Positions 15,101 to 25,726 of a stretch of DNA of 25,726 nucleotides are shown here, in pieces. Every line of letters begins with the position of its first letter. The first letter of the stretch is position 1. The stretch is from an uncultured virus (IMG/VR IMGVR_UViG_2902076858_000006) (taxonomy: Duplodnaviria; Heunggongvirae; Uroviricota; Caudoviricetes). The notes below the pieces were generated by a model. It was not told the DNA's origin. It worked only from the letters and a program-made list of their open reading frames with translations, and did no database searches. The stretch lies in the IMG/VR virus record IMGVR_UViG_2902076858_000006; one strand, written 5' to 3'. A program made the position numbers and the translations under genes.

Positions 15101-15521
15101 CCATCTTCACCTTCGAACGAGCGGCAGGGGTTAAACCAAACTCGACTAAATAACTTTTAAAGCGGCGATCTGCATCAGCCAACATGGCTACGGCAGGATT
15201 CGCTTTAATTAAAAAATCCCCTAGTTGGGTTTTTGTGGTGTATGTCCGACCTTCAATCGCAATGGTGTCTCGCAATTGAAGAATATCGGCGTAGATATCA
15301 CACAGCCGTTCTAATGCCAGCGTGTCAGCCACGGTTAAAACGCCCATTCCATCGAGTAATAAGGTTAATTTTGCCCACGCCATTTTCCCCCAATCCGTTA
15401 AATGTTCGGGCGGGCTTGGAATTTCACGTTTGGGTTGGGGTTCTTTATCGTTGAGTTTTCGTTTTCCCGGATTACCGGTGACCACCTTCAAGTGGGTCGG
15501 TTTCGGGCGTCTTCCTGCCAT
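15054..15521 (-). CDS. terminase small subunit, P27 family
   Basis: MAGRRPKPTHLK..GNPGKR and EFGLTPAARSK; GGAGG RBS. Confidence 0.95.
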   Translation of the reverse strand: MAGRRPKPTHLKVVTGNPGKRKLNDKEPQPKREIPSPPEHLTDWGKMAWAKLTLLLDGMGVLTVADTLALERLCDIYADILQLRDTIAIEGRTYTTKTQLGDFLIKANPAVAMLADADRRFKSYLVEFGLTPAARSKVKMDGGEEEEDPLNQYFG

Positions 15522-15638: not shown

Positions 15639-15977
15639 TTATTGATGCCAATGAGAATTGGGATCGAGTGGAATGCCATCCGCATTACAGCCAATGACTT
15701 TGCCACTCTTTTCGATACGTTGTTTGGTTGAGTTATGATGCAGTTCGCATAAGCTTTGAAAGTTCTTTGCGTCCCAAAATAAGGCTTGGGCTTTTGCGAT
15801 ACGTTCTTTATCGCCTGATTCAAGTGCTTCTTTAAGGCGATGCGGAATAATGTGGTCAACCACTGTGGCAGCAGTAATGCGTCCTTGCTCTTGGCACATG
15901 ACGCAAAGTGGATGTTCATTAAGAAACGCTAATCGCACCTTTGCCCAGCGACCACCATAGACATTGCGTTTTTTCAT
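15639..15977 (-). CDS. terminase-associated HNH endonuclease (HK97 gp74-like)
   Basis: HPLCVMC...ATVVDHIIPH...NFQSLCELHHN.TKQ immediately upstream of terS. Confidence 0.92.
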   Translation of the reverse strand: MKKRNVYGGRWAKVRLAFLNEHPLCVMCQEQGRITAATVVDHIIPHRLKEALESGDKERIAKAQALFWDAKNFQSLCELHHNSTKQRIEKSGKVIGCNADGIPLDPNSHWHQ

Positions 15978-16003
15978 GTTTTATCCCATTACAAATTTTC
16001 CCC

Positions 16004-16040
16004 AATAAAAAAGCCACCAGCGGTTAACTGATGGCTATTT
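16004..16040 (-). terminator. intrinsic terminator
   Basis: Minus strand AGCCATCAG-TTAACCG-CTGGTGGCT-TTTTTATT. Confidence 0.75.
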
Positions 16041-16173
16041 ATATAAACTCTATCAATGATACTCAATGAATAATATTTGTAGAATTGAATGCAGATAATA
16101 AAAAAACCACTCAGAAGCAGGCTTTATAATTGGTCACTTTACGCCATAAAGAATCCATATCAGACGAACTATT

Positions 16174-16638
16174 TTAACCTTTTTTGTTTAATTGGCTTTC
16201 TACTTTCTCTGAAAGTTCTATATTATCTATTTCAGTTTTAATTTCTTGAATATATTTTTCATTAAATCCACTAAATTTAATAACTCGCTTCGTTACTTTA
16301 CTTCCTTCGCCCGATGTTCCAAAAGTAATACCTTCTTGTTCCGTCTTCAGTCCAACAGAACCTTTGCCGTTAATATCATAATATTCTTCAATTTCGACTT
16401 CTTGAGCACACATAATTCGACGAGCTATTGATAATTCTTGCTCTACTTTTGCTTGAGCAAGAAGTGCTTTAGATTCTATTTCGACTCTTTTTGCTTTTTC
16501 ATTTAACTCATCAATACTAGCGGTTGATTCACTAATCTCACTGCCTGACTTTTCTAAAATTTTACTTATAGCATATCCCGTTGGACTTATTATAAACTTA
16601 AAAGCCTCTAATGCTGTTGATTTTACTGCAATCGCCAT
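16174..16638 (-). CDS. hypothetical AT-rich accessory protein (moron) between Rz and HNH
   Basis: ORF with GAGG RBS before ATG 16638 (MAIAVKS...); central coiled coil; no family recognised. Confidence 0.7.
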   Translation of the reverse strand: MAIAVKSTALEAFKFIISPTGYAISKILEKSGSEISESTASIDELNEKAKRVEIESKALLAQAKVEQELSIARRIMCAQEVEIEEYYDINGKGSVGLKTEQEGITFGTSGEGSKVTKRVIKFSGFNEKYIQEIKTEIDNIELSEKVESQLNKKG

Positions 16639-16787
16639 TGAAAAACCCCTCATTAATAAATTTATATTTATTATATTGTTTCATAAGCTATTTACTAGAT
16701 AATAAACCTTGTTGTTGTTCAATTTCCCGTATTGCTTTCTTTTAATAAATGATTCTATTTTTGAAGCAAGCACATCTTTATCTAAAT

Positions 16788-17249
16788 TCATTGCATACAT
16801 TCCGCTCTAATGTAATCCTGCAACCCTTTAATCATCTGCTCTGACTCTGCAATTCGCTCTCTGAGTAACCAATAATTTCGGATAGCGGTGTCAGTAGGTC
16901 TGGCGGTGGTTGCAGAAGCCAAGCTGGTGGAGGGAGTGGTTTTGCTTTTTGGGCACTCGGCTTTGATGTACACCCGCTCAGGATGATGCTCGCTAATATC
17001 ACGCAAGCGACTAATTTCATTCTTAGCATTCTCTAACTCCTGCGTATATTGAATATCCAGTTGGTTTAACCGCATTATGCGTGCTTGATAATCAGTATTA
17101 ATAGACTTCTGTTCTTCGAGAGCCACGGCCAGTTTTTTGTTGGTATCTATCAGTGAATTAATCCTGTTAGCTTGCCTGTTAATCACCCAATAACTACCCA
17201 CAATGATGCCTACCATCGCGATGGCGGCATAGAGTTTCCCGTATTTCAT
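16788..17249 (-). CDS. Rz i-spanin
   Basis: N-terminal TM, coiled coil, RVYIKAECP, YWLLRERI...GLQDYIRAEC. Confidence 0.92.
   Translation of the reverse strand: MKYGKLYAAIAMVGIIVGSYWVINRQANRINSLIDTNKKLAVALEEQKSINTDYQARIMRLNQLDIQYTQELENAKNEISRLRDISEHHPERVYIKAECPKSKTTPSTSLASATTARPTDTAIRNYWLLRERIAESEQMIKGLQDYIRAECMQ
16832..17020 (-). CDS. Rz1 o-spanin lipoprotein nested in Rz
   Basis: MKLVACVILASIILSGC lipobox followed by Pro-rich PLPPPAWLLQPPPD, in an alternative frame inside Rz. Confidence 0.88.
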   Translation of the reverse strand: MKLVACVILASIILSGCTSKPSAQKAKPLPPPAWLLQPPPDLLTPLSEIIGYSESELQSQSR

Positions 17250-17251
17250 GA

Positions 17252-17410
17252 TTAGTACCGATGATGTGAGAGTGCAATCTGACAGCGTTTTTCTAAACTC
17301 ACTTGGTCTTTAGTACATGAGTTATCAATCAAGAGATAAATGCCACCAGCGACTGTAATGAGTAATGCAAGAATAAAGCTGATAATGATGATTAAAGTTT
17401 TCCATGACAT
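17252..17410 (-). CDS. 52-aa single-pass membrane protein between endolysin and Rz
   Basis: MSWKTLIIIISFILALLITVAGGIYLLIDNSC...C; ATG 17410 overlaps the endolysin 3' end, stop 2 nt before the Rz ATG. Confidence 0.6.
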   Translation of the reverse strand: MSWKTLIIIISFILALLITVAGGIYLLIDNSCTKDQVSLEKRCQIALSHHRY

Positions 17411-17862
17411 AGTGCTGACTCCGCCTCTCGACGACTGACAAGCCCTCGCCAAACCTTTCCGCCTGCATATACCCAACGTTTTATTTCTTCACAGGCACCC
17501 GCTCTATCACCAACATTTAGTTTCTTAAGTAATGTTGAGCGAGCAAATGCTGTCGTTCCTACATTAAAAGCAAAGGAATATAAAGCGGCTTTGGCGTAGT
17601 CATCGAGTGGTACTTTGATTAATGCATCGACTTGCTGTTGTGTCTTAATAAAATCATTTTGTAATAACGCATCACATTCTTGTTGTGTGTATCTCTTACC
17701 TTGAATAATGTCTTTGCCTGTATGCCCATAACAAACCGTTAAAACGCCTGCCACATCACGATAAGGTTCATAACGTACACCTTCAAAATGGGCTATTACT
17801 ACTAACGCGATGGCTGTTGCTCCCGCCGTTGTTAGCGCAGCTATTTTCTGTTTGAGAGACAT
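17392..17862 (-). CDS. SAR endolysin (GH24 lysozyme, R21-like)
   Basis: Ala/Gly-rich N-terminal SAR segment; catalytic E-X8-D-X5-T (FEGVRYEPYRDVAGVLTVCYGHT). Confidence 0.95.
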   Translation of the reverse strand: MSLKQKIAALTTAGATAIALVVIAHFEGVRYEPYRDVAGVLTVCYGHTGKDIIQGKRYTQQECDALLQNDFIKTQQQVDALIKVPLDDYAKAALYSFAFNVGTTAFARSTLLKKLNVGDRAGACEEIKRWVYAGGKVWRGLVSRREAESALCHGKL

Positions 17863-18131
17863 TAAATATCCTTTGGCGCTTTCACCATTAATTCAGCAAG
17901 CCTTTTTAGGGTTTCAGTTGGGTTTTGTGGGTCAACATGTCGAACAAGCTCTTCAAATAATTGAGTGCGTTTTCGTTGTTCTCGACGAGTCATAAAATAA
18001 GTGGCTAAACCGAGAACCATGCTAAACGCCATCCCGATAACAAATCCCCATTCATATAATGAGAGACTGGCAAAAAATGCCGTTAGGCCTGCGGTTCCGT
18101 AAGTCACATTGGTTAATTTATCCATACGCAT
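17862..18131 (-). CDS. holin (class II, pinholin-like) with Met-Arg-Met dual start
   Basis: MRMDKLTNVTYGTAGL...two TMs...basic tail, resembling S21; ATGs at 18131 and 18125; RBS GGGGGTG inside hairpin CACTCC-TCTG-GGGGTG. Confidence 0.88.
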   Translation of the reverse strand: MRMDKLTNVTYGTAGLTAFFASLSLYEWGFVIGMAFSMVLGLATYFMTRREQRKRTQLFEELVRHVDPQNPTETLKRLAELMVKAPKDI

Positions 18132-18170
18132 AGTCACCCCCAGAGGAGTGTCCGAATTTAGTTACAGGAA

Positions 18171-18228
18171 TGCAGACACACAGCTTTTGTGTAAAGTAAT
18201 TAGGGTGTGATTAGTACTGTGGTCTGCG
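18171..18228 (-). repeat. structured element, copy 1 (upstream of holin)
   Basis: Minus strand GCAGACCACAG...CACAAAAGCTGTGTGTCTGC; homologous to 18970-19027 and 22732-22789. Confidence 0.7.
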
Positions 18229-18282
18229 TATTAGGAAAGAATAATACTTGCAAAGTCTAAATAGCCCTTGCAGGTCAATTTA

Positions 18283-18507
18283 TTAAAGTGGCGATATCCG
18301 GTAAATAGTAGAACCATTAACTTTTTTTATTTCAATGAGATTATTAGAAATAGCCATTAATGTGGCATTATTAATAGTCTCTAATTCACAGCTCGTTAAT
18401 TGCATGCTAGCGAGCTGTTTTTGTAACTCAGCAATTTGCTTGCCTTGCTGAGTAACTTGTCGCATTAAGGTGCTCATTGTCATTTTTAATTGTTCATCAC
18501 ACATCAT
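18283..18507 (-). CDS. hypothetical 74-aa coiled-coil protein
   Basis: AAGGAGAG RBS; heptad-like QQGKQIAELQKQLA. Confidence 0.65.
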   Translation of the reverse strand: MMCDEQLKMTMSTLMRQVTQQGKQIAELQKQLASMQLTSCELETINNATLMAISNNLIEIKKVNGSTIYRISPL

Positions 18508-18522
18508 TCTCTCCTTATTCGC

Positions 18523-18939
18523 TTATTTGGATAAATTAAGTGCTTTTAATAAACCTTCAGGCAACTGCTCTTCCAGTGACGCATTAGAAACAATCACAAG
18601 ACCATACATAGATATCCATGTATTCGTTTGTTGTAAGTGTCCTTGAATAAATTGCTTTGCTTTCTCTAACAAATAAATACAACTCTCTTGTGTGTTTTTA
18701 CGCCAATAGGATTCAATCGCCACCAGCAATGGGTCACCGGCATCACTAATTTTTTGCAAACCGATTCGATATTGCTTTTTACCTGCGGGAGACGTTGTAC
18801 AAATTAATTGTGTCAGTTGTTGAGTTTCACCATCAGCCGTATGGATATTCACCGTTAAAATGATAGAGGTATTCATTTCACTGTCTGTTTCTGATGCATA
18901 GTGAAGACTAAGCTGTAATTCGCTTATCTCTTTTGACAT
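18523..18939 (-). CDS. hypothetical 138-aa protein
   Basis: Clean ORF starting just downstream of structured element copy 2; no family recognised. Confidence 0.7.
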   Translation of the reverse strand: MSKEISELQLSLHYASETDSEMNTSIILTVNIHTADGETQQLTQLICTTSPAGKKQYRIGLQKISDAGDPLLVAIESYWRKNTQESCIYLLEKAKQFIQGHLQQTNTWISMYGLVIVSNASLEEQLPEGLLKALNLSK

Positions 18940-18969
18940 AACATTTACCGATTTATTTAGTTAATAAGG

Positions 18970-19027
18970 TGCCGACTCACAGCTCTTGTGTGAACAGTAT
19001 AAGTGGGTGTTGATTCTGTGGTCGACG
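18970..19027 (-). repeat. structured element, copy 2
   Basis: Minus strand GTCGACCACAG...CACAAGAGCTGTGAGTCGGC; U-G wobble on the minus strand. Confidence 0.7.
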
Positions 19028-19067
19028 TAGATGAAAAGGCTACAAAGTAACCTTATTTAATTTAGGG

Positions 19068-19097
19068 TTGAATACATTAATAAGAATAATTATCATT
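19068..19097 (+). promoter_or_regulatory. sigma70 promoter overlapped by a Fur box (copy A)
   Basis: TTGAAT-17 nt-TATCAT; TAAGAAT-A-ATTATCA (19081-19095) has 2 mismatches to the 7-1-7 Fur consensus TGATAAT-n-ATTATCA. Confidence 0.75.
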
Positions 19098-19102
19098 ACG
19101 CA

Positions 19103-19208
19103 TGTATCAAATTTGACAGGTCTGATACGAATTAGTACGACATGACTTACATTGCTTCTTGCGTTTATTTTATATGCCGATATGACTCCTAGCGTATCAG
19201 CATTTTTT
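19103..19208 (+). ncRNA. ryhB: RyhB-like Fur-regulated small RNA, copy A
   Basis: 5' hairpin GTATCA...TGATAC; core AGTACGACATGACTTACATTGCTTC versus E. coli RyhB AGCACGACATTGCTCACATTGCTTC; U-rich tract, terminator hairpin (one mismatch) and poly-T. Confidence 0.78.
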
Positions 19209-19295
19209 ATTTTGCGTTGAGTGGTTTTTTGTACGGATAATTTAGATGTGTATTTTAGATTTAGCACGATAACTCAAGATTAAATCTAGTCAGAT

Positions 19296-19321
19296 AGTCC
19301 ACTCATTACCAGAAGTAGGCT
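19296..19321. repeat. 26-bp degenerate palindromic cargo-boundary site L1
   Basis: AGTCCACTCATTACCAGAAGTAGGCT; its reverse complement resembles the R sites; ends 7 nt from the DUF3800 stop. Confidence 0.55.
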
Positions 19322-19328
19322 TTAACCT

Positions 19329-20441
19329 TTACAATTTTATACCATGTAAAAACCAATTATTTCTTCGTTGCTCTCTCTCGCTACTAACTACATGAAAAAA
19401 TCCTCTGCTAACATCCTCAGAAATATCAATAATACGTTTTAATGCGGAAAGTGTCTTAAATTGCTGACTAGTTAAATTTGCCTTATCAAGTGCTAATTGT
19501 TCATCATTTACATCTTTTAAGTAAGAAAAATACTTACCCAAAAATCCTGCGATAACGTCAGATAGTTGAATAGCCTCTGAGTTGTGGGATTTAACAAACT
19601 CATAATTATGTATTGGCATGTCATTGTCAGTTAGCGCGAAATCTTTAACATCACCCTGAATGCTTTTTTCTTCATCAAATATGTGAATGGAATTTTTAAA
19701 TAAAAATAAATTTCTTAAATAAAACACCATAAAACTATCGATCAGTTCTCGACCATGAGATCCCGATATGAATGGTAGATCTTCGACTTTAAGAGATTCT
19801 TTAACTAAACTTTTAAGCACGTTTGCTCGAAAATTCGGCAACATACAACTGTACATGCATGTAAAATCGATAAGCCATAGGCAAAACACATGAGCTTTTT
19901 CTTCAGGAATATTGGGATAGCTAAATTCATGTAGAGCATTCAGAAAAATATCAGAATTGCTATTGACAAGCTCATAGAAATCACTTTTAAGTGACATGTG
20001 GTTCATTATATAAAAAGGATGATGTAACTCACCAATAAGAGAATCAATAATGTCAATAACAGACCAGTACACGATATTAAGATTAAAGTAATGGATGTAA
20101 AATTTGTTTTCGATGAGCCAATTTAGAATAATTAAAAGCTTATCAGATTTAAGCATATCCAAAAAATTACCCTTAGCAATATGCTTGAGCTTTAGCTCAT
20201 GCGTACTTCCCTGAAGATTAAGCATTTGAAATAGTATTGAATAATCACTATCAGTGCTTAATCCTTTGTGTAGTATGCCGGCAAGGATGAAATTATCCGT
20301 CTTGTTAACATTAAAGCCAGAATCTTTTAAATATAGCTTTCGAATGTTATTCGTTTCATCATAATAAAATGTATAGACTTCATCAGTATTTTGAAGATCA
20401 TGATGCTGGATGAGCATTTCTCTATGTTTATTGACATCCAT
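19329..20441 (-). CDS. DUF3800-domain protein (RNase H-like fold), putative defence nuclease
   Basis: N-terminal YTFYYDETNN and C-terminal SHNSEAIQLSDVIAG motifs of DUF3800; probable start ATG 20441 after AAGGGG. Confidence 0.75.
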   Translation of the reverse strand: MDVNKHREMLIQHHDLQNTDEVYTFYYDETNNIRKLYLKDSGFNVNKTDNFILAGILHKGLSTDSDYSILFQMLNLQGSTHELKLKHIAKGNFLDMLKSDKLLIILNWLIENKFYIHYFNLNIVYWSVIDIIDSLIGELHHPFYIMNHMSLKSDFYELVNSNSDIFLNALHEFSYPNIPEEKAHVFCLWLIDFTCMYSCMLPNFRANVLKSLVKESLKVEDLPFISGSHGRELIDSFMVFYLRNLFLFKNSIHIFDEEKSIQGDVKDFALTDNDMPIHNYEFVKSHNSEAIQLSDVIAGFLGKYFSYLKDVNDEQLALDKANLTSQQFKTLSALKRIIDISEDVSRGFFHVVSSEREQRRNNWFLHGIKL

Positions 20442-20473
20442 TTCATTCCCCTTATGTAATTCTCCAAAGAAGG

Positions 20474-20644
20474 TCAATTTCCACAATCACCATATAAATC
20501 ACCAAGTTCTAGATAAGTTATACCCGCATATGACAAACCATCATAACTTTGCATGTTGCTATTGGTGGAGTACTACCAAAGTCATGACCACATGGGTAAT
20601 GCAAGAGCAAAAACATCGAATAGAGATTGTGGTAGCTTTTTCAT
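20474..20644 (-). pseudogene. decayed ORF fragment upstream of the DUF3800 gene
   Basis: ATG 20644: MKKLPQSLFDVFALALP / GHDFGSTPPIAT / QSYDGLSYAGITYLELGDLYG reads as protein-like text across two frameshifts. Confidence 0.35.
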
Positions 20645-20733
20645 ATATACAGGCAATATCCCTAAATATTTTCGAAATGCCTGTAGCGAATTGTGAACAG
20701 ATTTTAAGTTAGCCTAACAAACATACTAATGGA

Positions 20734-20801
20734 TGTCAGCTTCTCGTTCATGATGGACAACCATACTCAAATCTCCCAAATTGTAGGAGATGGAGCAGAC
20801 A
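20734..20801. repeat. inter-cassette imperfect hairpin containing boundary site R1
   Basis: TGTCAGCTTCTCGTTCATGATGGACA (20734-20759); outer arms TGTCAGCTTC / GGAGCAGACA and inner ATCTCC/GGAGAT. Confidence 0.5.
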
Positions 20802-20940
20802 CAGCGCAAACAGAAATAAAAATGTATTATATAATGTAGAATTACATAACTGTAGTTAAAAGACACTTCACATGGGTACATCATAACGTGATGATATCTA
20901 AACATATAGTATATTAAAACGTAAAGAAAAGGATTTATCA

Positions 20941-22449
20941 GTGGCGATCGTTAAAACATTTCATCTTAAAAGCAATCCCTTCGAGCATTACACTGCTGAA
21001 AATGAACCAGATATAAGTTTATATGCAGTAAGACCACCTTACCTTTCAGCCATAACTGATAGAGCCAGAAAGCTAAATTCTTTCATACTTTTTGGCAAAA
21101 GAGGGGCTGGTAAAAGTGCAACACGGTTGACAGTGTTTAAAGAAAATTATTCAACAGAAGAAAAAAAACCATTTTTAGTTAACTTAACTGACTTTACTGA
21201 TTTAATTGAAAAGTTTAAAAAAGGGAAGTTGACAGAAAGAGATATCATTTATCTTGTTGCCTACAATGTAATAGAGCAAATGTTAGGATGGATTTCTTTA
21301 CTTGATGAAGTTGAAAGAAAAAAAGTAATATCACAATTAAGCGCCAAACAGCGAGAATTGATTTTTGCATTGTTAAAAGGTTTTTATCTCTCTAAGAGCG
21401 AAGGAGAACGAGAGTTAACTACTGAAAACACTTTGAAATTATTGGATAGTGCATGGTTTAAAAAAAGTCAGGTATGGACAATTCACAGATGGGAATCTAT
21501 AAGTAAAGTTATAGCAGCAGCCATTAACGCACTTTCAAAAAAAACTTTAGAAGATGACACCATTGATATATCTAAGCCTGCTGAGGAATTACTTAAAAGC
21601 CTTACTGGTGAATCAGCCAATGCCCCACGGATTCTAATTAGCCGTTTAGTCTACTTTAGTCAATCTTTCGGTTTTTCGGGTATTTGTGTCTTAATTGATA
21701 AACTTGATGAAACTACTGTTACTACTAATTCTTCAGAAGCAACGGCTAAATTAATTTTTCCTTTACTATCAAATATACAGCTACTAGAGATTAGTAACTT
21801 TTCATGGATCGCATTTGTATGGGATGCAGTACAAGCTCATTTCAATAACAAGTATAAAATCAGACTGGATAAAATAGCTCATACAAATATATCATGGGAT
21901 AATGATGAACTTAAGGAAATGTTAGACAAAAGGATGTCATTCTTCTCAGATGGAAAATTAAACTTTGAAGGCATACTGAATATTAGTGGAGATAAAGGTA
22001 AGGCTATTGATCAACTTATTCATATTTCTGTTAAATCTCCACGAGAGCTCATAAAGCTATGCGACATCATATTTAGGGAGCATGATGCAAATGAATTAAA
22101 AGGCGGTATTAATGAACAGTCTTTGAACTCGGGGATTGACAAATATTGCCTAGATACAATCGGAACATGGTATGACAATGATGTCTTACAGCAAATTTAC
22201 AGATTAGGTAAAGATAATTTTGTCAACAAAGACGTTCAAAATTTATTTAAAATAAGTGATCAAGGTGCTCGTAATAAAATTAGAGGCTGGGAAGACATGC
22301 AAGTTGTTAAAAAAAAGGGCACCGCTCCGAGTGATGCAGGTGGCAAGTCAGTAACTCTTTATGAAGTAGCGGATCCTCGTATAGTCAGAATAATAAATAG
22401 AAAACTTGATCCTACTGTTGGTTTGTCAAATTTAAGCCAAGAAGAGTGA
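20941..22449 (+). CDS. P-loop ATPase (Sll1717/STAND-like) with C-terminal winged HTH
   Basis: Walker A GKRGAGKS, Walker B CVLIDKLDE, SPRELIK, C-terminal NKDVQNLFKISDQGARNKIRGWE; AAGGA RBS and GTG start. Confidence 0.8.
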   Translation: MAIVKTFHLKSNPFEHYTAENEPDISLYAVRPPYLSAITDRARKLNSFILFGKRGAGKSATRLTVFKENYSTEEKKPFLVNLTDFTDLIEKFKKGKLTERDIIYLVAYNVIEQMLGWISLLDEVERKKVISQLSAKQRELIFALLKGFYLSKSEGERELTTENTLKLLDSAWFKKSQVWTIHRWESISKVIAAAINALSKKTLEDDTIDISKPAEELLKSLTGESANAPRILISRLVYFSQSFGFSGICVLIDKLDETTVTTNSSEATAKLIFPLLSNIQLLEISNFSWIAFVWDAVQAHFNNKYKIRLDKIAHTNISWDNDELKEMLDKRMSFFSDGKLNFEGILNISGDKGKAIDQLIHISVKSPRELIKLCDIIFREHDANELKGGINEQSLNSGIDKYCLDTIGTWYDNDVLQQIYRLGKDNFVNKDVQNLFKISDQGARNKIRGWEDMQVVKKKGTAPSDAGGKSVTLYEVADPRIVRIINRKLDPTVGLSNLSQEE

Positions 22450-22475
22450 GCAATATCACTTAATTTGTGATTTAT

Positions 22476-22496
22476 GCACTGTTAACAGTGCTTTTT
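22476..22496 (+). terminator. terminator after the ATPase gene
   Basis: GCACTG-TTAA-CAGTGC followed by TTTTT. Confidence 0.7.
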
Positions 22497-22519
22497 ATCT
22501 TTCATAGAAAAATTGTCAG

Positions 22520-22647
22520 TATCCGTTTTTCGCTCAAACCAGACTGCCAGTCTCTAATTGTGTTCAACTTACAAACTTTGCAAACCCAAATTTGAATCAG
22601 TGCTCTTACAAAAACAATTAAGGCTACACATTATGCGTAGCCTTAAT
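22520..22647. repeat. right arm of duplicated module, copy A (site R2 plus hairpin); homologous to 25162-25297
   Basis: Shared blocks CGCTCAAACCAGACT, ACTTAC, CAAATTTGA, ACAAAAACAATT and a terminal hairpin. Confidence 0.75.
22617..22647 (-). terminator. terminator-like hairpin
   Basis: ATTAAGGCTAC...GTAGCCTTAAT, followed on the minus strand by TGTTTTTGT. Confidence 0.6.
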
Positions 22648-22731
22648 CTTATTCACGTTATCTAACTCAATTATTTTTTATCACTATTGTTTGCCGTTTT
22701 TCCATTTACCGATTTATTTTAGTTAATAAGG

Positions 22732-22789
22732 TGCCGACTCACAGCTCTTGTATGAACGGTATAAGTGGGTGTTGATTCTGTGGTCGGCG
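22732..22789 (-). repeat. structured element, copy 3
   Basis: Minus strand GCCGACCACAG...TACAAGAGCTGTGAGTCGGC. Confidence 0.7.
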
Positions 22790-22829
22790 TAGATGAAAAG
22801 GCTACAAAGTAACCTTATTTAATTTAGGG

Positions 22830-22859
22830 TTGAACATATTGATGAGAATAATTATCATT
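22830..22859 (+). promoter_or_regulatory. sigma70 promoter overlapped by a Fur box (copy B)
   Basis: TTGAAC-17 nt-TATCAT; TGAGAAT-A-ATTATCA (22843-22857) has 1 mismatch to the Fur 7-1-7 consensus. Confidence 0.82.
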
Positions 22860-22864
22860 ACAAA

Positions 22865-22970
22865 TGTATCAAATTGACAGGTTTGATACGAATTAGTACG
22901 ACATGACTTACATTGCTTCTTGCGTTTATTTTATATGCCGATATGACTCCTAGCGTATCGGCATTTTTTT
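22865..22970 (+). ncRNA. ryhB: RyhB-like Fur-regulated small RNA, copy B
   Basis: Perfect 5' stem GTATCAAA/TTTGATAC, RyhB-like core ACGACATGACTTACATTGCTTC, terminator ATGCCGATA/TATCGGCAT plus T7. Confidence 0.82.
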
Positions 22971-23295
22971 ATTGTATTGAGCAGTCCTTTCATACTTGTA
23001 ATTTAGAGATATATGATCAAATTCAATCTAATATTACTATGATTTAAGTCTAAATCTAATCAGATAGTCCGCACAGTGCCAAAAGATGCCTTAAGAAAAC
23101 TGTAAATTTGCATTAAGTGTGGTGCTATAACTCATCTGATTCAAATAAATTCGCATTTGAATTCATTTTGTGAAAACGATCTTAAAAAGCGGTTAAATCA
23201 ATATGTTATTGTGATGTTATAGTAGTATATTGTACTACATATGTGTTAGTAAACGTTTTGGTGCTGATATTGTTAACTATATAAAAGGAGTTATT

Positions 23296-24369
23296 ATGTG
23301 TGAAAATCCTATGGACATTAATGAATCCGAACAAAAAAATGCTATACAAGAACAAATTGCGGAAGTTCTTATGGATTATGAACTTCCCCCTCCCGGAGGG
23401 ATGAACTCAGCACATGTAGGTCGTTGGATAGAGCAATTTGAGGAAAGAGACAGACTTTTCATTCTTAAGCAAACGCTGGCGTTACTTCGAAACGCATATA
23501 TAAGCAAAAGTAATTATATAGATAAAATTAATGATATTCTTAGACATAAGAAGAATTTTTCTATAATCCGCGAATCAGCGTTCCTTAATATACAAGAAGC
23601 TAATCGTGGGACTAGTCAGAGAGATTTACTGGAACTGTTAGAAAGCCAAGCAGAGGAATCTGAAGAATTAGATATAGTTATTTTATCAAGAACGTCAACA
23701 AAACAAAAAGTTGAAGAATTTAATAGATTCATCTACTTCGACGATGTTTGTTTTTCTGGGAATAAGGCCTTGAACGATATTACTTGGTTTGTAGAATACT
23801 TTGATCTAAGTAATATTACTATTCGCGTGTGTTTCTTGGGAACTCATCGATATGCAACCTATATGCTAAAGACGACTCTCGAGAGAAAATTTCAAGAGCG
23901 AAATATCTCACTGATGATCAAAGAAGATGGATTCCTCAAAACGCGCGAAAATCGCCTTAGGTATTCCTCATCTTCTGAAGTTTTTTGGTTGCGCAGAAAT
24001 GGTATTGAGCTACCAGGCTGGATCCAACATCCGGAGATCTATACATCGCGTGAGGGCACTGAAAGGACTCATTTTGAGCCAAACGACATCTTTCTCAACA
24101 AAGCAGATCGCTATCGTTTTGAATATGCACTAACAAAGGCTGGTTTTTATATACTTCAGCAAAGTCAAAATCCTGCTTCGATTCTCAAACCTCTCGGCTT
24201 TTCAACATTCTCTGGACTAGGATTTGGTGGAACCATTTTTACTTATCGAAATTGTCCAAATAATACTCCACTAGCTTTTTGGTGGGGAAGATATGAGCGC
24301 GATGAGATTCCAAATTGGGCACTGGATTGCTGGTATCCATTAATGCGCAGAATTGGGTATAATCAGTAA
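23296..24369 (+). CDS. phosphoribosyltransferase-like protein (PRTase-CE-like)
   Basis: PRPP-loop-like FIYFDDVCFSGNK; C-terminal PLGF..F.GLGFG...YRNCPNNTPLAFW; AAGGAG RBS before ATG 23296. Confidence 0.7.
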   Translation: MCENPMDINESEQKNAIQEQIAEVLMDYELPPPGGMNSAHVGRWIEQFEERDRLFILKQTLALLRNAYISKSNYIDKINDILRHKKNFSIIRESAFLNIQEANRGTSQRDLLELLESQAEESEELDIVILSRTSTKQKVEEFNRFIYFDDVCFSGNKALNDITWFVEYFDLSNITIRVCFLGTHRYATYMLKTTLERKFQERNISLMIKEDGFLKTRENRLRYSSSSEVFWLRRNGIELPGWIQHPEIYTSREGTERTHFEPNDIFLNKADRYRFEYALTKAGFYILQQSQNPASILKPLGFSTFSGLGFGGTIFTYRNCPNNTPLAFWWGRYERDEIPNWALDCWYPLMRRIGYNQ

Positions 24370-24371
24370 CT

Positions 24372-24983
24372 ATGAGCTATAGAATTTATCCAAACAATGA
24401 GACTGTCAGTTTCAGGAAAACGACGGAAAAATGGGGTGGTCTATCTAACATGTCGCGTGGATATCCACTGTATGTTAACGATATTCCTATCCAATCGAGT
24501 GAAATCCTCTATCAGGCCTGCCGTTACCCCGACTATCCGGAAATACAAAAGGAGATAATTACTCTAAGCAATCCCTTTGAGGCGAAGCAAGTGGCTAGAT
24601 ACTATGAGCCGAAAACACGTGACGGTTGGGAAAAAAATCGAGTGTCCATAATGAAATGGTGCGTCCGGATAAAGCTTTGCCAGAATTGGGAAAGCTTTTT
24701 TCCACTCCTTAATTCTACAGGTAATATTAATATTGTTGAACATTCTGAAAAAGATCTTTTCTGGGGAGCTCGCCGTGAATCAGATGGTAGTTTTTACGGG
24801 ATGAATGTACTTGGTAGAATACTCATGGAAACTAGGGAAATAGCTAGAGCGCGTGGGCAAGACGGTTTCAAATTTATCCCTGCTCTGCAATTAGATAAAT
24901 TTCTACTACTGGGCGAACCGATCAAAGGTACTTCTACACTAAAACTGGGGCCATCCACAGGGCAAACCATGGAATTGTTTTAG
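24372..24983 (+). CDS. NADAR (YbiA-like) family N-glycosidase
   Basis: LSNM...SSE.LYQA.RY...EAK...W...MKW...K..QN...L.STG...IVEHS..D.FWG...G.N.LGRILMETRE; starts 2 nt after the upstream stop. Confidence 0.88.
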   Translation: MSYRIYPNNETVSFRKTTEKWGGLSNMSRGYPLYVNDIPIQSSEILYQACRYPDYPEIQKEIITLSNPFEAKQVARYYEPKTRDGWEKNRVSIMKWCVRIKLCQNWESFFPLLNSTGNINIVEHSEKDLFWGARRESDGSFYGMNVLGRILMETREIARARGQDGFKFIPALQLDKFLLLGEPIKGTSTLKLGPSTGQTMELF

Positions 24984-25010
24984 TTAGTTTCTAGCAAGGT
25001 ACATTTTACC

Positions 25011-25032
25011 CTCTCTTACAATAGTAAGAGAG
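25011..25032. terminator. perfect 9-bp hairpin after NADAR
   Basis: CTCTCTTAC-AATA-GTAAGAGAG; no clear U tract. Confidence 0.45.
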
Positions 25033-25161
25033 CCTATTCAAATTAGAAATATACACTGTACAGTTTTAACGCTTTGCTGTAAGGTTCTTAATAGATCAAT
25101 GAACCGTCAAGGATGATCTAAAATCTCCAAGCCCTTTCTTCTTTGAACATTTTACATATTA

Positions 25162-25297
25162 TGTCCACTTAGCGCTCAAACCAGACTATCTGGTCTAGAT
25201 TGTTTTTACTTACGACGCCTGTCAACTCAAATTTGAGTTAATACAATTTAGAACCTTTGACAAAAACAATTTTGACTGTACATAACGCATAGTCATA
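25162..25297. repeat. right arm of duplicated module, copy B (site R3 plus hairpin)
   Basis: TGTCCACTTAGCGCTCAAACCAGACT...CAAATTTGA...ACAAAAACAATT...TGACTGTAC/GCATAGTCA. Confidence 0.75.
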
Positions 25298-25302
25298 AAT
25301 AG

Positions 25303-25330
25303 CAAAAAACCCCGCCGAAGCGAGGTTTTG
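25303..25330 (-). terminator. intrinsic terminator of the csp-ymcF-like transcript
   Basis: Minus strand AAAACCTCGC-TTCG-GCGGGGTTTTTT, UUCG tetraloop. Confidence 0.85.
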
Positions 25331-25350
25331 TATATTCAACTATTTAATGC

Positions 25351-25506
25351 TTAACTCATTTGAGCTGTCATCACACTTTTGCAAAAGATACATTTTGCGC
25401 CGTGTGGGTTGTTCACTGTGACATCAAATTGTGATGTTCTATATTGTGATGTTCTATATTGTGAACCGCTACAACAAGGGCATTTAAAATAGAGGCGAAT
25501 AGTAAT
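25351..25506 (-). CDS. ymcF: YmcF/YnfQ-family cold-shock zinc-ribbon small protein, ATT start
   Basis: (ATT)TIRLYFKCPCCSGSQYRTSQYRTSQFDVTVNNPHGAKCIFCKSVMTAQMS; CPCC..SQYRTS.FDV...NP.GAKCIFCKS matches YmcF; directly downstream of csp. Confidence 0.85.
   Translation of the reverse strand: MTIRLYFKCPCCSGSQYRTSQYRTSQFDVTVNNPHGAKCIFCKSVMTAQMS
25429..25464. repeat. 15-bp tandem duplication inside the ymcF-like gene
   Basis: TTGTGATGTTCTATA x2 plus TTGTGA. Confidence 0.9.
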
Positions 25507-25513
25507 AGCGCCT

Positions 25514-25726
25514 TTAGAGAGCCACCACATTGCCTGCTGCTGGGCCTTTCATACCATTTTCCATGGTGAATGAAACTTGTTGGCCTTCAGCTAATGTTTT
25601 GAAGCTATCACTTTGGATTGCAGAGAAATGTACGAAAACATCTTTGCTGCCATCAGCTGGAGTAATAAAACCAAAACCTTTACCTTCATCGAACCATTTT
25701 ACTGTACCAGTCATTGTATTAGACAT
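25514..25726 (-). CDS. cold-shock protein, CspA family (CspB/G/I-like)
   Basis: RNP1 KGFGFI and RNP2 VFVHF; 70 aa. Confidence 0.96.

Follow-up and report, generated by a model that had tools for sequence, protein, structure and literature searches.

Defence cassettes in a doubled slot of an HK97-like Proteus prophage, bounded by two site types and associated with a small candidate tyrosine recombinase

The stretch of DNA analysed here, below called the window, is the whole 25,726-nucleotide IMG/VR record IMGVR_UViG_2902076858_000006, from an uncultured virus of the Caudoviricetes. It is the late region of an HK97-like prophage, with terminase, major head protein and lysis genes, and it ends at cspA. 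Two units of a cargo slot, A and B, lie in tandem upstream of the lysis genes (Table 1), the position given in the initial annotation; the genes orf74 and orf138 stand between this module and holin, lysozyme and Rz. Each unit has a left arm, with a leader stem-loop and a gene for a RyhB-like RNA, and a right arm. The left arms (18942–19210 and 22703–22971) are identical at 255 of 270 aligned columns (94%), the longest identical run being 76 bp. The shared left arm had been put at ~380 bp; ~270 bp of this is near-identical, and the remaining ~110 bp, up to what had been called the L site, is alike at the level of motifs (76 of 120 columns). The right arm, described as ~130 bp, is present in both units, with 91 of 140 columns alike. 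Where matches of the arms carry a name, they are to Proteus phages or to P. mirabilis records; all 21 genomes of the nearest genus matched the left arm, as against 1 of 40 others, that one weakly.

The cargo of the window consists of three cassettes: one for a DUF3800 protein (PADLOC candidate system PDC-S51) and one for DS-41 in unit A, and one for DS-32 in unit B. The interiors are unrelated, as first noted, pairing DUF3800 with a P-loop ATPase in one unit and PRTase-CE with NADAR in the other. Unit A had been taken for a single cargo unit, and is instead divided by an internal site (B1, below). Its DUF3800 cassette shows 86–87% DNA identity to copies in the P2-like G-FI slot of E. coli and on a Klebsiella plasmid, and in E. 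coli M10 it sits in the P2-like slot of fun(Z). Between the start of the DUF3800 gene and B1 lie some 200 bases (20497–20706) that the P2-slot and plasmid copies do not have. In unit B a PRTase gene is followed by a NADAR gene, both above their NCBIfam cut-offs, which places the pair in DS-32; the equivalog cut-off for DS-41 is likewise passed. The DS-41 cassette was found neither in IMG/VR nor in 401 genomes of the family, which leaves a single site score to define its right edge. The DefensePredictor preprint (bioRxiv 10.1101/2025.01.08.631726) counts DS-32 and DS-41 among its validated anti-phage systems. All three window proteins pass these equivalog cut-offs, the DS-32 copies differing from the described ones as Proteus homologues of 50–69% identity. 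Judged by its genes, the prophage probably provides its lysogen with three defence systems.

We assembled a slot set from 44 IMG/VR loci, fetched by a 20-mer of the RyhB-like gene, and 18 genome stretches. Anchored slots numbered 61, the two of the window included: 48 filled (0.8–6.9 kb), 10 empty and 3 unresolved; three slots without a right end were dropped. Layouts were counted over the 35 cargo-bearing slots of IMG/VR and the window, with 9 empty or cargo-less IMG/VR slots outside the count, and came to 28, with 64 protein families. Among the cargo are five different Gabija pairs, Lamassu, retron I-C, SIR2-HerA, PD-T7-1/5, DRT, SEFIR and TIR proteins. PADLOC matched 35 of the 64 cargo families, a few of these matches being weak or spurious (RlmF, a kinase), as against 1 of 26 other window proteins (CspA, a generic hit); by hand count, 16 of the 26 layouts found outside the window include a match at E 1e-20 or better. 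The 29 families without a PADLOC match turned out to include DS-41. Three slots (L053, L073 and L164) carry, after a B site, a full gene for the 23S rRNA m6A1618 methyltransferase RlmF, above the cut-off of NF008725. A constant interior or a lack of defence enrichment would speak against a defence hotspot, and neither was found. Variable cargo, empty alleles and enrichment for defence genes together support the proposal that this is a swappable defence hotspot, here captured twice, and we regard the slot as almost certainly such a hotspot.

Conservation inside the slot ends at motifs of two types, both of them imperfect 9-6-9 dyads whose core is asymmetric: type A, at the left, has the core GTGCCA, and type B, at the right, the core GAGCGA, read on the opposite strand. 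What had been described as L and R sites within direct repeats is instead an inverted pair of these two types. A first, mixed site profile was noisy and was replaced by separate ones. An A or B site was found at an edge of 41 of the 48 filled slots, as against 1–2% of random windows. Over the whole window, A1 and A3 receive the two highest A scores, and B1, B2 and B3 the three highest B scores. Polarity is fixed, A pointing right and B left, for 70 of 71 sites in 39 distinct slots, and over all loci 186 of 190 neighbouring site pairs are concordant. In 49 pairs of slots whose outer arms are alike and whose cargo is not, the sequences stay almost fully identical to the end of the A core and diverge immediately beyond it; cassettes that are 97–99.7% identical change neighbours exactly at the core (L075/L149, L079/80/81, L090/91). 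The same edges recur outside the slot. The DUF3800 cassette lies between A and B both in the P2-like G-FI slot and on the Klebsiella plasmid; A1 holds the position of the A site in these copies, and the bases adjoining B1 match the P2-slot copy as far as its B site. The DS-41 copy on an E. coli plasmid is homologous from 20793, at half site A2, onwards. The A edge of DS-32 is common to L171 and its B edge to L170, and in L178 the system is bounded by A and B. Phage P2 itself has an A site at 15344 and a B site at 17441, flanking fun(Z) and aligning with A1, A3, B2, B3 and the outer arms of the window; they score 31.9 (A) and 32.4 (B) on profiles built without P2, but with one P2-like prophage locus. 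The pattern is one of cassettes with a 9-6-9 site at either end, type A to the left and type B to the right, the two types not being interchangeable.

One of the cargo families is a 200-aa tyrosine recombinase. Its gene lies between B and A sites in L048 and L068, and likewise, with a deletion, in L160; L063 has a broken copy before its A site. The recombinase is present in both long B-to-A gaps among the slots that were selected by the RyhB 20-mer, independently of the enzyme. Homologues were fetched from 77 loci, and the 49 that were near full length were counted (28 were dropped: partial matches and two duplicates). A B site lies 62–66 bp upstream in 25 of the 49 and an A site downstream in 33, with both in 24; where identity is at least 75%, A stands at +28 to +30 after the gene in 30 of 30. 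These neighbourhoods are arrays of A...B cassettes, with 25 B-to-A spacers of 29–48 bp. Most recombinase copies have the catalytic motifs. Four (in L075, L086, L089 and L092) have single in-frame stops, which suggests that inactivation of the enzyme is selected for once cargo has been captured. In the window, a remnant of the recombinase leader runs into the inner half of a type-A site (A2), the gene itself being gone. The initial annotation had overlooked the internal B site, this leftover leader and the connection with a small tyrosine recombinase.

The model that we favour, and hold to be probable on this comparative evidence, is a slot of HK97-like Proteus prophages, between the RyhB-like small RNA (sRNA) and cspA, in which a recombinase would drive exchange of cassettes by A×A and B×B crossovers. 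A mobile gene, itself inserted between a B and an A site, encodes the 200-aa tyrosine recombinase, which most likely joins like sites, A to A and B to B; such crossovers would excise or insert cassette circles. A circle would enter at a resident site and so create a two-cassette array; a second crossover, at the other site type, would remove the old cargo, amounting to natural cassette exchange. As their cores differ, A and B should not recombine with one another, in keeping with the lack of inversions and with the 10 empty alleles having no hybrid site. Unit A, with the order A1-DUF3800-B1-recombinase stump-half A2-DS-41-B2, would then be a frozen two-cassette array, in which a circle carrying the recombinase and DS-41 may have entered at B1, the recombinase gene and most of A2 being lost afterwards. 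Homologous recombination between the arms could still remove unit A, a loss of 3.76 kb, and probably also moves whole slot alleles between Proteus prophages.

Several points weigh against exchange by this recombinase. The site profiles were trained on the loci to which they were applied, which inflates their sensitivity, though polarity and breakpoints were untrained; both edge sites are kept in 16 of the 48 filled slots, and neither in 7. The window's own A1 and A3 score only 9.0. The plasmid copy of DS-41 has no B site, its homology stopping 36 bp short of B2, and an E. coli copy of DS-32 in a lambdoid replication slot is without edge sites. A recombinase homologue was found in only 3 of 21 genomes of the genus, one of them broken and one distant and without sites, so that activity would be episodic and in trans; homologues of 72% identity or less mostly lack A and B motifs. 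Finally, the adjacency of recombinase gene and sites is a correlation, from which we infer the activity of the enzyme.

The alternative that survives best, still an unlikely one in our estimate, is an ordinary moron hotspot, with homologous (Red- or RecA-type) exchange in the arms and the sites acting as operators, terminators or passengers. Recombination between the arms had been put forward initially as the engine, and it is possible: the arms are ~94% alike between prophages, with the 76-bp identical run, 7 of the 48 filled slots have neither site, and homologous exchange between phages is a standard proposal, as in the discussion of PMC13586616. The swap points are nevertheless the 6-bp cores, where identity breaks, and not places along the arms; the same cassettes occur in P2-like phages and plasmids with unrelated flanks; and the polarity is fixed, with the recombinase lodged between B and A. 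Recombination between the arms does not explain this pattern.

The tandem itself is very probably real. At its junction the last codons of the gene usually following the slot are fused to the second leader; this gene, which follows the slot in most relatives, we take to be for a small heat-shock protein, a name given by resemblance of its 152-aa translation and not by family scan. The two arm copies are 93.7% alike, compared with a median of 94.4% between relatives, and each has relatives of 96–98% elsewhere. The closest relative of each copy is thus not the other, as a recent duplication would have it: by segment, the other copy ranks 9–57 of 60. These identity ranks were used alone because the arm tree was poorly resolved (6 of 45 branches starred). 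With arm copies as far apart as the arms of unrelated prophages, a mosaic join of two alleles is indicated and not a fresh duplication; the module described as duplicated does consist of two units in tandem, better read as two joined alleles. The simplest reading would be an out-of-register, non-homologous join of two related prophages at 22702/22703, where no repeat is common to both sides. Two sequencing runs, X2 and X9, have unit B alone joined to orf138 (about 99% identical); these single-unit phages were considered as deletion products and read as relatives, X9 being ~5–7% different in the lysis genes and orf138.

An assembly chimera of two prophages, which would leave the slot system real but not doubled, is the rival here. 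Sequencing run X1 has contigs that break at repeats, leaving 22603–22724 uncovered and the junction bridged by none of them, a gap that is no proof either way; an X1 joint of 18994 to 25299, with 24 letters on one side, was not used. A 20-mer across the junction had no match in IMG/VR and two metagenome hits without further similarity, rejected as chance; the junction is absent among plasmid-collection records, and the 62 loci of the slot set contain no second double slot. We nonetheless consider a chimera improbable: the join offers an assembler no repeat to cross, the arm copies differ at 15 of 270 columns, and both interiors are present in X1 (0–1 differences) at similar depth, although this run departs from the window in a few positions.

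Non-autonomous transposons, with inverted ends (A, B and the outer arms) moved by a transposase in trans, are very unlikely to account for the slot. A and B do face each other like terminal inverted repeats, and the outer arms are similar to those of the P2 slot; but the outer arms stay with the slot (of 41 pairs whose outer arms match at 36 or more of 40 positions, 36 are unrelated in their inner sequence), each site forms a dyad of its own around an asymmetric core, and the 60 cargo families scanned with Pfam include no transposase but do include a tyrosine recombinase. Integron-like excision and insertion of single cassettes by A×B recombination, suggested by the arrays with their short spacers and adjacent tyrosine recombinase, is the least probable of all: a hybrid site is kept in none of the 10 empty alleles, where only 14–18 bp are left, the cores are unlike, inverted products are nearly absent (4 of 190 pairs discordant), and no IntI family is among the NCBIfam hits above cut-off of the 200-aa enzyme. 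The window has no IntI-family integrase, and 15900–25726 no attC-like Rfam match. Readings as a XerC/D dif module or Tn7 ends were dropped for want of resemblance.

Besides the sites, the arms contain RNA features. Paralogues of the leader stem-loop lie before the holin gene (18172–18227) and in copy B (22733–22788), all on the minus strand, and the stem is kept by a double change between copies (GCCGAC/GTCGGC and GCAGAC/GTCTGC). It has no Rfam family, and is possibly a late-transcript or translation leader; it also precedes other phage genes, with several copies per Proteus genome. The RyhB-like gene reported in both left arms does match RF00057, but its scores (30.1 and 23.1 bits) fall short of the gathering threshold of 55 bits, and we call it RyhB-like only. 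Upstream of each copy is a sequence that we take to be Fur-box-like. Folding differs between copy B (22866–22973, z −4.0) and copy A (19105–19212, z −0.4), and copy A may be decaying. Rfam matches other than cspA and RyhB were terminator-like chance hits.

Around the slot, the interval from holin to orf138 (18200–18520) varies from 0 to 1.2 kb in relatives, and a second variable interval after Rz (16000–16780) holds an AT-rich gene of 159 aa. The ymcF-like gene has an in-frame 15-bp tandem duplication (25433–25462) that is absent from all four sequencing runs compared. In four loci (L036, L037, L041 and L062) another ymcF-cspA pair stands to the left of the RyhB gene, which indicates that the region is rearranged often.

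Table 1. Features of the slot and its surroundings in the window
Feature	Position	Strand	Remarks
Rz	16788–17249		Lysis cassette
Lysozyme	17392–17862		Lysis cassette
Holin-like gene	17862–18137	−	Lysis cassette gene 1; fixed left context of slot
orf138	18523–18939	−	phrog_2473, conserved phage gene without known function; downstream of leader copy A
Leader stem-loop, copy A	18971–19026	−	12-bp stem, ~30-nt loop; folding z −2.8; double stem change between copies
Fur-box-like site and RyhB-like sRNA with terminator, copy A	19076–19210	+	Rfam RF00057, 23.1 bits, below cut-off
Site A1	19297–19320	+	Degenerate type A; left edge of DUF3800 cassette; A-profile rank 2 of 25,696 window positions
Cassette 1: DUF3800 protein, candidate system PDC-S51	19329–20486	−	PADLOC E 1.3e-107
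Site B1	20735–20758	−	Right edge of cassette 1; profile score 17.7
Recombinase 5′ leader remnant	20750–20791	+	Coding sequence absent; 49/56 identical to B site and leader of L093
Half site A2	20792–20800	+	Inner half; core and outer half absent; left edge of DS-41 cassette
Cassette 2: DS-41 anti-phage P-loop ATPase	20941–22449	+	NCBIfam NF053860, 400.5 bits, cut-off 370
Site B2	22521–22544	−	Right edge of slot A; top B-profile score in window, 20.6
Closing hairpin, terminator-like	22617–22647		z −6.3; conserved; directly after RyhB terminator in empty alleles
Last codons of gene usually following slot	22670–22702	−	Fused at 22702/22703 to second leader (tandem junction)
Left arm, copy B	22703–22971	+	Leader stem-loop 22733–22788, Fur-like box, RyhB-like sRNA 22892–22970
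Site A3	23067–23090	+	Left edge of DS-32 cassette; A-profile rank 1; homology to L171 begins at core
Cassette 3, gene 1: DS-32A, PRTase-like (PRTase-CE)	23299–24369	+	NF053875, 289.4 bits, cut-off 250; 50% identical to E. coli protein so annotated
Cassette 3, gene 2: DS-32B, NADAR	24372–24983	+	NF053876, 263.7 bits, cut-off 240; 69% identity
Site B3	25163–25186	−	Right edge of slot B; score 11.4, rank 3; homology to L170 stops there
Diverged closing hairpin, terminator, ymcF-like gene, cspA	25269–25726	−	Fixed right context

The known arrangement most like the slot is that of the inverted repeats at P2 fun(Z), where the same A and B sites flank cargo and exchange points fall at the repeats; the review PMC8987985 credits Nilsson et al. 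(2004) with site-specific exchange via these repeats. The present slot differs in lying beside the lysis genes of an HK97-like Proteus prophage, and in that arrays can be seen here, together with sites of two types and a candidate enzyme. It resembles the P2/P4 defence hotspots, as presented in the accessible text of PMC9122126 and PMC13586616, in its variable defence cargo between conserved genes, rapid swapping and near-identical systems in unrelated elements, and differs in phage group and locus. The same text proposes cos-end, homologous or illegitimate recombination for those hotspots, processes described there as not yet elucidated; the words 'inverted repeat', 'motif' and 'palindrom' are absent from the main text of PMC13586616. 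Integrons (IntI, attI/attC) likewise have a tyrosine recombinase beside site-bounded cassette arrays rich in defence genes, whereas here each cassette has two double-ended site types, multi-gene cargo stands in either orientation, and the 200-aa enzyme lies inside the array. Recombinase-mediated cassette exchange (RMCE) with heterospecific lox or FRT sites, and FimB/FimE, offer a similar combination of dyad sites, two asymmetric cores and a catalytic-domain-only enzyme of ~200 aa. RMCE is an engineered method, and FimB/FimE invert a fixed switch; the slot recombinase scores 28.5 bits, far below the invertase cut-off of 222. We found no description of the site and enzyme system by title or abstract, a search that did not cover subscription papers, bioRxiv supplements or the text of Nilsson et al. 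(2004).

Taken more broadly, we lean towards a widespread, so far undescribed system of natural cassette exchange in Enterobacterales, in which a small trans-acting recombinase and two heterospecific sites would move defence cassettes across lambdoid and P2-like phages, plasmids and chromosomes; the window would present a stalled intermediate with a recombinase scar, and a doubled slot for three systems. The doubling is a modest curiosity, and the mechanism of exchange matters more. By what route defence genes change places at phage hotspots, and pass between unrelated mobile elements that share no homology, is an open question according to the accessible portions of PMC13586616 and PMC9122126; the sites and candidate enzyme described here make an exchange mechanism testable, and the slot is a ready list of defence candidates. 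The locus is a new instance of a defence hotspot, and it provides evidence for a recombinase-driven exchange that would extend what is known of the P2 Z/fun repeats.

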